Source: Lingula anatina (Eukaryota > Animalia > Brachiopoda). Taken from it: DNA of 64,000 bases. Location: the NCBI GenBank assembly GCA_051362555.1, contig CM120649.1, forward strand, positions 6,944,001 to 7,008,000, in the 5' to 3' direction. The notes under the pieces were generated by a model. The model worked only from the letters and a program-made list of their open reading frames with translations. It did not search any database and had not been told where the DNA came from. Position numbers and translations under genes: made by a program. Shown here in pieces: positions 29,401 through 44,400 of the stretch (the first letter of the stretch is position 1; every line of letters begins with the position of its first letter).

Positions 29401-32400
29401 GTTGAACTAGGGCTCCCCTATAACCACACGTGTAATGTGGTAAACTTTAATATTCAGGCCTACCCAACTACCAGACTCGGCACCTAAGGATCCTGAATTA
29501 ACCGGTATATCGGACCACGCTACCCGTTTTCAAGGTGTGTGTCAGATCGCATTTCGGAGTATCATACCCCAGAACAAATTTTGTAGCACGGCTGCGGGCT
29601 CATCCACCCTGAACAACCTGAAACTGTACTCTTACTTTAGAGTACTCTATTTTATTCTCTCTATGGGGGTATATGGGGACTTTACGACATTCGGTTTGAA
29701 TGTTTTAACCACTTTTGATAGTTTTTTTTTTTTGCATTGTATTAGATTAATATGGCAGTCTAAGGTTCATCTAGGTGGCTTTCAAATTTATGTGCCCGGT
29801 TTTAAAATCATATAGCGATTTTACGACAATCGTTTACTATCCAATCAAAGTGACAGCCGAGCATGCCAGGGCTCATCCTGTCGGTGTTCTGGCTGATACT
29901 CCGAAATGCGATCTGACACACACCTTGAAAACGGGTAGTGTGATCCGATATGCCGGTTAATTCAGGATCCTTAGGTGCCGAGTCTGGTAGTTGGGTAGGC
30001 CTGATATTTATTACTTATAATGACTCATAGAAGTCTCAGTAATCTCTTGTGGTAAGAGGGGTTAGGGCTTCGTTCACATGCAATGTCTATTTTCTAAATT
30101 CTATTTTCTATTCGCGGTATGTCTTATGATTACGGTCTGTGCCCTGAATATCCCGCGGCGTAATTACTGGCAGCGCGAGCCAGTTACTATAAGTTACTAT
30201 AAGTAACTGGCTCGCGCTGCCAGTAATTATGCGGCGGGATATTCATGGCACAGACCGTGATCATAAGATAGCACGAATAGAAAATAGAATTTAGAAAATA
30301 GACATTGCATGTGAATGAAGCCTAGGTGTATTGCCATCATTTTCACAGATTTTTTTTTTACAGATTTACAGATTTCTATGCAGTAAAACACCCCGAGTGC
30401 TACATAGTCTAAGAGATCTAATTTTATGATTTAAAAATTATGTTTCTGAATAATTGATCAGTTAACTTTTACCCATTGGAAAGATAAAATAATTACAAGT
30501 ATTCTTTATCGATAAAATGCTTTTCTAACCAAGAAACAATGAAAGGATTCTAAAATCATCAAAAACAGATCTAGAGAAAAACTGAGGGTTTTTATCATTT
30601 TTAAAACCTAGACATCAAATGAGAGGTCACATATACAGACAGATTCAAACAGATTCAATAAGATCTAGGTAAAAAAAAAAAAATTGTAAAAATAATCTAG
30701 TCTTGTAAATTTCACAAGGTATCTTTTATTAACCAAGAAAAAGCCTCTAAGTAAATTTAAAGGTAACCAAAAACATGGTTTGGCAGTTATATGTGTTGAT
30801 GTGTAAGTGGGAATGCATCGGCCATGGCTACAGTGACGCCATGGACAAATACAGGAATCAGACATAACACAGACACTTACAGTGTCGGTACATAAAAAGT
30901 GAACTAGTTGCAAGTTTCATTCTTGTTCTAATGTGATTCTAGTGGTACAATTAAACTATACCTGCACTCTGTTTAATGTGACATTACTTCTAGAGACGTG
31001 TATAACAGCATGTCCTATGTGGTCAGCAATCATATGAGACAGTGCCCTTATTAACAACATGGTGGGAAACACTGTGGACGGTATCAGTATAGCTTCCCCA
31101 GCTTCCCCAGCAGCAACAGCAACAAGCAGCAGTGCAAGGATTAGAAGCTTAGAGCTTCCAACAATCATCAAATTATAAAAAACGCCTGCAGCATACTGTC
31201 CTCTCCTCAAATGTGAAAGCTCTTTCCTAAAGGAGAAGTTTTCAAGCGTTAAAATTGCCCTTGTTACATGTGACAGTTTCTTCACAACATTCAGGATTTA
31301 AGAAAGAACATGTTCTGCTTGCTGAGAGGAAGTTATGAGTTCTCTTTCTACAAGATGCAATGTACAAGAATATTTCACTTGCATTAAAACATATGACTAT
31401 TATAGTTATATTCTATTCAATAACGTAACATTAATGAGGTTACTAAGCATAGTTACTGAAAGGTAAGCTCTCTATAAAAACAGGGGCAGCTGAAATCTGC
31501 ATAATGCATTATTATATTCCAAGCGTAAGTTGCGGGGCATTATTTATTTCCCAGTAAAAGCTGATATGTATGCACAGAAAAGCAGTTAAAATTTACTAAT
31601 ACGAGTGGCAATATCTTAAGTTATCAAGGTGCTATTAATAAGCAGGCCTGAAAAGCATTCATGCAAACAAGCATGGCACACAACTTACTGCATAAACTGA
31701 TATACATATATAAAAGGAGCAAAGCAGAAAAATAGGGAGAAACAGGATAAATTCAAAATATTACTTTTTTCCACTGAACTAACTTTCAGTGAAAAAAGTG
31801 TCACCCATTACAAAAAAAAACTGCAACTGAGTATACCAGTACAGTCCATCCTTAATATTATGAAAATAAAGGAAGAAAGAAACAGATCGATGCTGTATCA
31901 ACAGTTTATTATGGGCGGCGGTTTATACAAAAATGCAAAACACGATTAGTCGTCATCGTTATCAAATCAGTCGAAATGAAAACACGATTAGTCGTCGTCG
32001 TTATCAGATCAGAAGGCAAAATACGACTAGTAGTCGTCAAAACGCAACTAGTCATCAAAACGCAACTAGTCATCATCAAAACGCAACTTGTCATCATCAA
32101 AACGCAACTAGTCATCAAAACGCGATTTGACGCCAGATGGCGCCCATTGTACGAAAATCTAGGCCAAGTCACATGATCCACAGTGATCAAAATGGCGGAC
32201 GTTATTGAAGCAGCATTATCATATTCCTCGCTCGAACTCGAGAATTATCTCGAGTTCGAGATATTATTATATATATAATATCATTATTAGATTGTACGCG
32301 TAGAGATAATTCTCGAAATAATAAATAATTAAATAATTTATTAAATAATTTGGACATGTTATAAATTAAAAAAAAAAAAAAAAACACACACTTGTGAAGC

Positions 32401-41400: not shown

Positions 41401-44400
41401 AATGCAGCACTGAAGCAGCTGAAATTTTGGTTCTACCAACAAATGCTCCTAATATCCTACACTGATCATATGAAGAGGTCCTTAAACAGGTTGACAAAAA
41501 AAAAGACAAGTCCCCAATACAGTTACAGATACACAACTTAAGTTCTTGGGCCACTCCATCAGAAAAGAGGGATTGGAGATCTAAGCCTTAGTGAAAAATA
41601 CCTGGCAAAAGTGCCTGAGGCAAACAACGAAAGACCTTCCTTGACAATTTAGAATTCCAACAAAACACCTTTGAACATTGGAAAGAACTTTGGCAAAATA
41701 TCGACATTCCTCAAACACTGCATCGGTGATGGCACATGATGAAGAGAAGAAGATAAGATGATAAAACAGTTATTCCTGACAAAGAAAAAATAACAAGAGT
41801 TTAATAATTTCAAATAACAATCTGTTAATCATGATCATGTGAATAACATTTCTGAACCAGAATGGAACCCTCTTAAGAAGATTTCTTTGTTCACCAGAAC
41901 AACTAGGAGTTATCAATATCATTACAATATGTGAAAAAGGGAACATTTCACAAAAAAGTTAATAACCTAAGTAAAATAATCCGATCAGGCTGGTTTTGGA
42001 ATTAGACCTGTATTTCAGTAATATTGATCACTCCAGGAGACAAAAGGTAAACTGTTTATACACTTAATGTGTTATCTGTATTGCTAAAAAAGAAATCTTC
42101 ATGTTCTGGTAAACGGGTAACATGAACATTAAAAAAATGTAACTAGTATGAGGATTCATTTCCATGGGGTTTCAAAGTCAAACATTGAAATGCCAATATC
42201 TAAAAAATTGAAATTTTACCAAAATAACAGCAAAAAAATAAATAAATAATAATAATAATAAAAATGATAATAAAAAAATAATAAATAAATGAATAATAAT
42301 TACAATAAATAAAAATAATAAATTGCATAATTAAAAAACTATCAGGCTGGTTTATGAACTCAAGCTGTGCTTTATTGCCACGAGTCAGATCTGTAAATTA
42401 GAGCATAAAGAAATCTTATGCCATTAAAAAACATTTTCCATTAAAAAAGGGCATATAGATGTCACCACCTACAGATGCTGGGAGTGGCTAAACGTACAGA
42501 CATGGTGCCTGTAGACAAAAAGTAAACCAGTTGTGAGTTTCATTCTTGTTCTAATTTTAATCAAGAACTAAGACTATACCTGCACTCTGTTTAATGTGAC
42601 ATAAGCTCTAGAGGAGTATATAACAGCATGTCCTATGTGGTCAGCAATCATATGAGACAGTGCCTTTACTAACAACATGGTGGGAAACACAATGGACGGT
42701 GTCAGTACAGTTTTGCCACCAACAGCAACAGCAACAAGCAGAAATGCAAGGATAAGGATCTTGGAGCATCCAACGATCATCAAATTATAAAAAATGCCTG
42801 CAGCATACTGTCCTCTCCGTAAATGTGAAATCTCTTTCCTAAAGGTAAAGTAAGAAAGCATTTTGACTGTCTGCTAAATATAAGTGAAGTTCTTTCCTAA
42901 AAAGTAAGGCTTAAGAAAGATATTGTTATTCAATCTACAAGGAAAGATGAGTTTTCTTTCAAAAATTTGCTTTTTACAAAAATATTTTACTCAAATAATT
43001 TAACTATAACACTAAAACTGAAGTTCACTACTAAAACATTTGAGACAAAGTTGAAAATTAAAGCAGCTGGAACCAGACTATCCTCATGCCCCAATGAAGC
43101 TGGACCCAAACCCTCCCTATGCCCAAAAGAAGCTGGACCCAAACCCTCCCTATGCCCAACAGAAGCTGGACCCAAACCCTCCCTATGCCCCAATGAAGCT
43201 GGACCCAAACCCTCCCTATGCCCAAAAGAAGCTGGACCCAAACCCTCCCTATGCCCAAAAGAAGCTGGACCCACACCCTCCCTATGCCCAAAAGAAGCTG
43301 GACCCAAACCCTCCCTATGCCCAAAAGAAGCTGGACCCACACCCTCCCTATGCCCAAAAGAAGCTGGACTCAGACCCTCCCTATGCCCAAAAGAAGCTGG
43401 ACCCAAACCCTCCCTATGCCCAAAAGAAGCTGGACTCAGACCCTCCCTATGCCCAAAAGAAGCTGGACTCAGACCCTACCTATGCCCAAAAGAAGCTGGA
43501 CTCAGACCCTCCCTATGCCCAAAAGAAGCTGGGCCCAGACCGCAAATGGGCCTTAATTATTCATCAAGCATAAGCTTTTCATAGTATATTCATAACTTTT
43601 TTCAAATTTGGTGTAAGGCAAATTCATAGGAAAAGCTGAGGCACATGCATTAAAGAAAATGCAATGCAGTTACTAAAAATTTTTGCTGCCAATAAAAGGG
43701 ATAATAAAACTATGTAAAGAAGGGTACAATATGTCACATCATTCATTTTCATTAAAAAAGACTCATTCCACCAGTTTTGTAGTAAAATCAAAGCTAGAGT
43801 GACACTCCAGCTGAAATTAAAGGGGCTAGAGTGTCAATCATTGCCTATACCCACTGCATGCTTCATTAGTAAAATGTGACATCTTTATTCTTTCTTTTCT
43901 TTTCTGAAGTTCCTTTATTTTTTATCCTTTTTTAAGGGAAGGGGTTAATAAATAATGGTCTGATTCACAGACATTTGGGTAAAATATTCCTCTCTTTAAC
44001 TGCACACCAACAGACCGATTATTACATCCTTATGATGGATGGAAAGATGGTAGAAAGGGGTGGATAGCAATGTCTTAACTCAACCTGTAGACTACATCAT
44101 AATCAACATTCCGAATTTACACTGGCCATATCCAGAGCATCCTGGAGAAAAAGGCACTCCCTTCCAAATCCTCCTCTTAGCAGTGCTTGATATATACAAC
44201 TGTTTTTACAACTAGATGCTTACAAAAATACTTACAGCCCATACTGAAGATAGGATATTCATATGTAAAATATCAAAATAAATAAATACTACTGGGTATT
44301 AGTATAAGGTTTAAAAAATCCATTTCCCTTTTTTTACCTGTATCCTCAAGCAAGAGGTGTGTACCTCCCCAGTTAACTGGAGACCAAGGGACATCTTGGT

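Follow-up and report, generated by a model that had tools for sequence, protein, structure and literature searches.

Eight homologous exons for transmembrane helices 5 and 6, four with a His/Asp motif predicted to line the cargo pocket, in an ABCC4-type gene of Lingula anatina

The gene considered here lies on the minus strand of a 64,000-nucleotide stretch of the genome of the brachiopod Lingula anatina (assembly GCA_051362555.1, contig CM120649.1, positions 6,944,001 to 7,008,000; the window below means this whole stretch) and encodes an ABCC4/MRP4-type ATP-binding cassette (ABC) exporter. One of its exons is present in eight homologous versions, 8a-8h, four of which (8c-8f) carry a cluster of histidine and aspartate in transmembrane helix 6 (TM6), where MRP4 has a hydrophobic wall against its cargo. 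The question raised by this locus is what the substituted wall is for: a first-pass annotation, made from the sequence, suggested metal-coordinating transporter isoforms or reversed charge selectivity. In our analysis 8c-8f are four recent tandem copies of a single variant, which probably retune the cargo pocket of MRP4.

An ABCC4-type gene with eight versions of one exon

Placed exon by exon with tblastn, the whole protein P0127 runs from Met1 (63252) to its end (10864) and has the short MRP architecture, i.e. a lasso, transmembrane domain 1 (TMD1), nucleotide-binding domain 1 (NBD1), TMD2 and NBD2, with no membrane-spanning domain 0 (MSD0). Pfam families PF00664 and PF00005 were matched on P0001. 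One of the TMD2 exons matches XP_023930136.1, a protein named as MRP4 of L. anatina, at 100% identity, and the other named matches are ABCC4-like; furthermore, exon 8a matches MRP4 with an E value of 1.8e-15 and CFTR with 7e-5, so that the nearest kin is ABCC4 and not CFTR or ABCC1. The pocket residues encoded by constitutive exons (H152, H153, F156, F211, D842, R946, Q994, W995 and R998, in MRP4 numbering) are all retained, and outside exon 8 the protein is MRP4 without modification, its NBD motifs being intact. As judged from its sequence, the gene is thus an ABCC4 whose 8c-8f isoforms lack the canonical pocket wall, and ATP-driven organic-anion export is predicted for its product from ABCC4 membership. 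The gene and the exons in question are as follows.

10864..63252, minus strand: ABCC4/MRP4-type gene, first to last coding base, lasso-TMD1-NBD1-TMD2-NBD2, about 1555 amino acids
50824..50949, minus strand: constitutive exon 7, ending in phase 2, splice sites read from the sequence
46066..46315, minus strand: exon 8a, canonical TM5-TM6 with R362, L363, L367, F368 and P370, used in P0121 and P0127
44338..44590, minus strand: exon 8b, divergent, with R362, G363, T367 and K368, in none of the eight database models examined
42580..42838, minus strand: exon 8c, His/Asp variant, motif at 42663-42622, joined to exon 7 in RefSeq XP_023933061.1 (P0122)
39795..40056, minus strand: exon 8d, His/Asp variant, motif at 39878-39837, in none of the eight database models examined
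34026..34284, minus strand: exon 8e, His/Asp variant, motif at 34109-34068, joined to exon 9 in XP_023930139.1 (P0124)
30962..31226, minus strand: exon 8f, His/Asp variant, motif at 31045-31004, a fifth His at 375, joined to exon 9 in XP_023930138.1 (P0125)
27785..28040, minus strand: exon 8g, older sister of 8c-8f, with S362, D363, D367, Q368, N371 and H359, in P0126 (full length) and P0001
25701..25947, minus strand: exon 8h, basic, with about R363, Q367, R368 and R371 (register less sure), in XP_023930137.1 (P0123)
23771..23887, minus strand: constitutive exon 9, starting in phase 0

All eight versions (247-265 nucleotides) sit between constitutive exons 7 and 9, have AG/GT ends and no stop codons, are 3n+1 nucleotides long and lead from phase 2 to phase 0; the product of each is TM5, a short outer loop and TM6. 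Because each is 3n+1 long, the reading frame is restored by any single version and lost when two or three are included together. The L. anatina models in RefSeq/UniParc use six of the eight (8a, 8c, 8e, 8f, 8g and 8h), with one per protein in 8/8 cluster members. From the reading frame and these database models, the versions are likely spliced one at a time. The range assigned to the variants in the first pass, 30962-42838, corresponds exactly to the outer ends of exons 8f and 8c.

Register, pocket position and age of the His/Asp motif

A search of the window found the 14-residue His/Asp motif four times, always on the minus strand, starting at 42663, 39878, 34109 and 31045, i.e. in 8c, 8d, 8e and 8f, as had been noticed before. 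Its canonical 14-residue counterpart is in 8a at 46149, and the related SDMVSDQ of 8g is at 27862. The MRP4 numbering used in the first pass proved to be correct, since human MRP4 as given in the PDB and exon 8a can be aligned over residues 305-387 with no gap. The exon-end anchor, the VF dipeptide at 351-352 and a 61-row alignment agree in placing S362, H363, D367, H368, G370 and H371 in 8c-8f, and S362, D363, D367, Q368, G370 and N371 in 8g. A pairwise global alignment put 8g in a different register, and the register of the divergent exons is less sure. The peptides of 8c-8f are 86, 87, 86 and 88 residues long, with the differences located in the loop between the helices, so that the variable loop length was also read correctly.

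In MRP4, residues L363, L367 and F368 are described as a hydrophobic wall against prostaglandins, dehydroepiandrosterone sulfate (DHEA-S), cyclic AMP and methotrexate, and R362, with D842 and Q845, as binding the sulfate of DHEA-S where TM6 and TM9 meet (10.1101/2022.12.22.521501; PMC11948813). In the ATP-bound state L367 and F368 are reported to close against W995 (10.1101/2022.12.22.521501). The claim that the substituted positions contact substrate therefore stands for 363, 367 and 368, and applies to 362 as well, but S371 is mentioned nowhere in the accessible text of the two MRP4 structure papers. Among the Lingula versions, this hydrophobic wall with R362 is found in 8a only, with S/H/D/H at these positions in 8c-8f. 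By homology, H363, D367 and H368 are expected to face a common cavity, and residue 371 by helical angle only. Modelling of the isoforms had been proposed in the first pass as a check: in an AlphaFold2 model of P0122 (TMD1 with 8c), TM6 is one helix (residues 341-389, with a predicted local distance difference test score of 82-94 by block), and the 19 best PDB matches are all MRP4, matching from the N-terminus.

If one exon 8 version is chosen per transcript, 8c-8f would turn the hydrophobic wall and the Arg362 anion contact into a polar, hydrogen-bonding and pH-titratable His/Asp wall. The constant half of the pocket (H152/R946/Q994/R998) would probably still anchor an anionic group, with the cargo stacked on W995; the cargo itself is likely more polar than prostaglandins or steroid sulfates, with a polar, zwitterionic, cationic or metal-bearing end facing TM6. 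The isoforms would be expected to fold into a working pump. Reversed charge selectivity could be partial at most: H152, R946, Q994, W995 and R998 are in constitutive exons and kept, and since these pocket residues outside exon 8 are retained, a full charge reversal was rejected.

The invariance of the motif had been pointed out in the first pass. There are indeed no amino-acid changes in it among 8c-8f, but this is not clearly beyond chance for four recent copies. Exons 8c-8f share 80-93% of their peptide and 88-95% of their nucleotide sequence and were duplicated together with flanking intron. A tree built on only 83 columns joins them in a shallow group with 8g as its sister (98/95). Of 89 columns, 64 are invariant among the four; a run of at least 14 invariant columns appears somewhere in 16% of shuffles (P = 0.16), and four given columns are invariant with P = 0.27. 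Compared with the rest of the exon, 0 amino-acid changes were seen in the motif where 5.6 were expected (nominal P = 0.004 for a stretch picked post hoc), and 1 synonymous change where 3.9 were expected (P = 0.10). The first-pass annotation had itself suggested that equally invariant synonymous sites would explain the motif by duplication alone, which is largely what was found. Because the synonymous sites are nearly as invariant, selection on the His residues is indistinguishable from recent copying, gene conversion or constraint at the RNA level, and invariance was rejected as proof of selection; it comes mostly from recent copying and ordinary TM6 constraint. The sole deep conservation available is that of D367 and an Asp at 363, retained in 8g at 39-44% identity.

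A different picture emerges when the exons are taken whole. The pooled ratio of nonsynonymous to synonymous rates (omega) among 8c-8f is 0.43 (28 nonsynonymous and 23 synonymous changes; binomial P = 0.002 against neutrality), and the indels in the exons are whole codons, with gaps of 1-7 nucleotides in the upstream introns. As whole exons, 8c-8f thus look functional and are under purifying selection. An assembly artefact was rejected, as the copies are 5-12% different from one another and are also present in a second assembly.

Some further features of the gene may be listed here. Exons 8b (44590-44338) and 8h (25947-25701), which cluster together in the tree (94/86), have basic pocket residues (K368 in 8b; about R363, R368 and R371 in 8h), a chemistry opposite to that of 8c-8g. 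Between 8g and 8h, at 26935-26991, lies a second, decayed copy of part of exon 10, the Walker A exon, namely its 3' end (86% over 57 nucleotides), suggesting that one duplication event copied a block longer than exon 8. A 183-codon exon at 21050-20505 encodes a long Ser/Gly/Lys-rich linker between NBD1 and TMD2, far longer than that of vertebrate MRP4 and reminiscent of a regulatory domain.

The same cassette in other animals

Isoforms were compared in 31 pairs from 12 genera including Lingula, and the same exon is swapped in 8 of the 11 others, the eight being molluscs and one hemichordate. The differences are confined to residues ~300-384 in Lingula, Mytilus, Dreissena (where 5/7 pairs also differ at a few other places), Argopecten, Mya, Ruditapes, Haliotis, Pecten and the hemichordate Ptychodera. 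No isoform differences at ~300-384 were found in Branchiostoma, Lineus and Glandiceps; judged from their proteins, other ABCC4 exons are swapped in Branchiostoma, where isoforms of the P0027 cluster differ at 210-263 and 1-31, and in Lineus, where P0017 and P0193 differ at 834-858.

Like the Lingula array, the mollusc and hemichordate cassette has the same exon with the same boundaries, one canonical and several divergent versions, and a recurrent H363. Among 203 non-Lingula proteins, 45 had no usable segment, and the rest gave 108 distinct segments, 55 of them canonical-like (many from fishes) and 53 divergent. Counted in a right-anchored register with no row-by-row check, the divergent variants have lost R362 in 36 cases, carry a charged residue or His at 363, 367 or 368 in 29, and have H363 in 10. 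The number of potential ligands (His, Asp, Glu or Cys) at 363, 367, 368 and 371 is 0 in 33 variants, 1 in 18, 2 in 1 and 3 in 1, and 4 in none. Furthermore, column entropy in the 61-row alignment is 2.2-3.5 bits at 324, 362, 363, 367, 368 and 371, as opposed to 0-0.9 at constitutive pocket positions. As far as these sequences indicate, the TM6 wall is generally rewired with polar residues in this cassette, and the Lingula cluster goes furthest in that direction. The sole other variants with at least two ligand-type residues at the four positions are P0139 (Mytilus edulis X2) and P0194 (Ptychodera X2); the former, with H362, E363, C368, E371, D374 and D375, has a possible independent metal-like cluster.

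Lingula 8b-8h join no variant clade of molluscs or the hemichordate, and only P0161 of Argopecten, on a long branch, falls with them. A descent of 8c-8g from the mollusc H363 variants was thus rejected, with the reservation that the tree rests on 83 columns. A homologue search with exon 8c gave 0/267 candidates and 0 in 1.84 billion representatives, which says little, since 8c is itself in the collection (P0122) and a search with 8a was blank as well (0/34). None of the eight single exon 8 versions matched Pfam, not even 8a, and in the ESM Atlas unnamed clusters were obtained, one with ABC_membrane on 13% of its members.

Competing explanations and known transporters

Several points weigh against the explanation favoured here, a pocket retuned by spliced 8c-8f. 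The structural model is half a transporter (predicted template-modelling score 0.48; template-modelling score of about 0.5 to MRP4), with its register inherited from the alignment; the database isoforms are computed gene models on an assembly that splits the gene; and no docking or selector element stood out in a crude exact 9-mer scan of one genome with no null model, whose candidates were three scattered bins in the intron preceding 8a, with none ahead of exon 9. Four charged or titratable side chains in mid-membrane, together with the loss of Pro370, could impair the pump. RNA reads were mapped to 23300-40300 (8d-8h and exon 9) in four of nine listed runs, with 6-25% of each run read, and no spliced read joining 8d-8h to exon 9 was among the joints listed for these four runs, in which the gene is barely covered. 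Run X1 has 113 bases on the 8d bin, 153 on 8e, 85 on 8f and 170 on 8g, the exon 9/10 bin having 266 for comparison, and the strand is the expected one throughout; X3 has 74 bases on the 8d bin, and X4 and X7 have none on 8d-8f and 391 and 448 bases, respectively, on the 8h bin. This corresponds to about one read per exon bin in X1 and about three on the 8h bin in X4 and X7, and as the bins include intron, splicing is neither shown nor excluded. Most of the mapped reads fell on repeats, and for 39780-42860 no indexed RNA dataset was listed. The repeats of this region comprise a tandem array and several inverted-repeat elements resembling small non-autonomous transposons (43060-43541; 31910-32880; 24026-24290 with 30063-30327; 29449-30008).

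The alternative that survives best, although we consider it rather unlikely, is that 8c-8f form a true metal site in which the His/Asp residues of TM6, together with a glutathione thiol or with D842/E845 of TM9, would coordinate a transition metal or a metal conjugate. The positions 363, 367, 368 and 371 are His or Asp in 4/4 copies, a four-ligand cluster reached by none of the 53 divergent variants of other animals, none of which has more than one His at these positions, and the Asp residues kept in 8g at so low an identity point the same way. In a lenient rotamer scan on an ideal helix, each of the pairs 363+367, 367+371, 367+368 and 368+371 can reach one ion, and the triple 367/368/371 is marginal (0.58 Å). 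However, the i/i+4/i+8 triad 363/367/371, proposed as lying on one helical face, misses a common ion position by 2.3 Å, and all four residues miss it by 2.9 Å, so that a single-ion site of this type was rejected. Of the controls of the scan, i+4 (0.06) and i+2 (2.4) gave what was expected, but i+1 also passed (0.3), so that a positive result marks a combination as possible at most; the scan covers a single ideal TM6 helix and no ligands between helices. To hold a single ion, the site would have to draw further ligands from the cargo or from a second helix.

A candidate for such a helix is TM9, whose first exon is duplicated.

17927..18006, minus strand: TM9-start exon, unannotated 80-nucleotide copy with intact splice sites, keeping D842 and having E at 845
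16160..16239, minus strand: TM9-start exon, annotated 80-nucleotide copy with D842 and Q845, used by all six Lingula models reaching the region

The two peptides are 67% identical, and no such TM9 alternative was found among the proteins of the other species compared. The unannotated copy provides E845 at a position lining the TM6/TM9 site with R362, and its combination with 8c-8f would bring H363, D842 and E845 near each other; of the leads to a metal or cation site, this is the strongest. In its fullest form, with H363/D367/H368/H371 and with E845 beside D842 making a protein-ligated transition-metal or metal-glutathione site in the MRP4 cavity, such that the gene would switch between organic-anion pump and metal exporter, the proposal is unlikely.

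Circumstantial observations bear on the metal reading as well. Zebrafish Abcc4 is reported to export lead (PMC7923114). A Cys-rich gene lies 8 kb downstream of the transporter gene, an adjacency that in animals is weak evidence. It is multi-exon, on the minus strand at 1-2510, runs off the window start, and comprises at least three similar modules that begin with GCSVG, along with related modules whose ends show the pattern C-x-G-K-x-C-C; we take it to be metallothionein-like from its composition. Three of its exons, searched singly, gave no Pfam match, and a literature search listed no paper devoted to such a gene. As to the motif itself, its lack of amino-acid changes is offset by the choice of the stretch after the fact (corrected P = 0.16) and by the synonymous depletion, and the four copies amount to one evolutionary event. 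Moreover, the ABC metal exporters considered here are described as holding metal by glutathione or phytochelatin thiols (ABCB6; PMC11143254) or are modelled with it between aromatic residues (Ycf1; PMC10862839), not with protein His clusters. As both handle metal without one, ABC metal export does not need a His cluster, and since a charged residue or His at 363/367/368 is common in the cassette (29/53), a polar wall is by itself no specific sign of metals. From the suggestion of metal-coordinating isoforms, the pocket-facing position and the unmatched cluster remain in its favour, and the invariance and the triad geometry do not.

It is quite improbable that 8c-8f are young, redundant and rarely used copies with little role, their motif having been inherited or homogenised by gene conversion. 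Their high nucleotide identity with shared flanking intron, the near absence of synonymous change in the motif, the scarcity of RNA on 8d-8f in 3/4 runs and the failure to find any relative of 8c-8f outside Lingula are what such copies would give; on the other side stand the omega of 0.43, the absence of any stop or frameshift (P of about 0.04 for no stop if neutral), the presence of 3/4 copies in RefSeq models and the age of the lineage with 8g. The remaining explanation, a leaky, channel-like or non-transporting isoform, e.g. for small ions or protons, recalls the alignment of the exon 8 segment with CFTR 293-372 (TM6 of CFTR lines the pore) and the possibility that D/H at 367/368 might weaken the closure against W995 reported for ATP-bound MRP4, but it is very improbable given that charged residues occur at these positions in many other cassette variants and that the protein is otherwise an unaltered MRP4 whose NBD motifs are intact.

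The array represents a natural pocket-swap set on one constant transporter, in which Lingula has eight versions of TM5-TM6 and molluscs and a hemichordate together have dozens, and makes cargo choice in MRPs directly testable. For marine filter feeders, a further consequence is that ABCC4 expression measured per gene conceals isoforms that probably carry different cargo.

Among known systems, vertebrate ABCC4/MRP4 (human 8bjf and 8iz8, bovine 8sx7) is the best match in sequence and fold, with the same short-MRP layout and the canonical TM6 that Lingula keeps in 8a. The vertebrate rows examined have the hydrophobic TM6 wall with R362; Lingula adds seven exon versions, four of them with S362/H363/D367/H368/G370/H371. 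The exon arrays of MRP1-type genes are not known to contain a His/Asp cluster. In these genes (Drosophila MRP CG6214, its Anopheles and Trichoplusia orthologues, C. elegans mrp-1 and sea urchin ABCC1), tandem homologous exons are swapped singly, as is likely in Lingula; such arrays are reported from insects, nematodes and sea urchin (PMC9741552; PMC6071210; PMC4234516), with eight interchangeable exons in Drosophila mrp (PMC9741552). Exon arrays are thus known from MRP1-type genes, and the ABCC4 isoform sequences are already in RefSeq, uncommented; a literature search with most subscription papers outside its scope turned up no published description of an ABCC4 TM5-TM6 exon cassette. The known arrays are of the ABCC1 type and that of Lingula is ABCC4. 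For metals, the nearest parallels are Ycf1, itself an ABCC protein, and ABCB6/HMT-1, ABC exporters with a central cavity that takes metal-thiol complexes; Cd is described as held in ABCB6 via glutathione thiols (PMC11143254), and in Ycf1 a metal was modelled between aromatic residues (PMC10862839). A possible His/Asp metal site in the cavity of the Lingula isoforms would differ in mechanism from this thiol or aromatic holding, and, if protein side chains do bind metal there, it would be unlike the thiol-carried export of Ycf1 and ABCB6 and an unusual case of splicing changing the substrate class of a pump.

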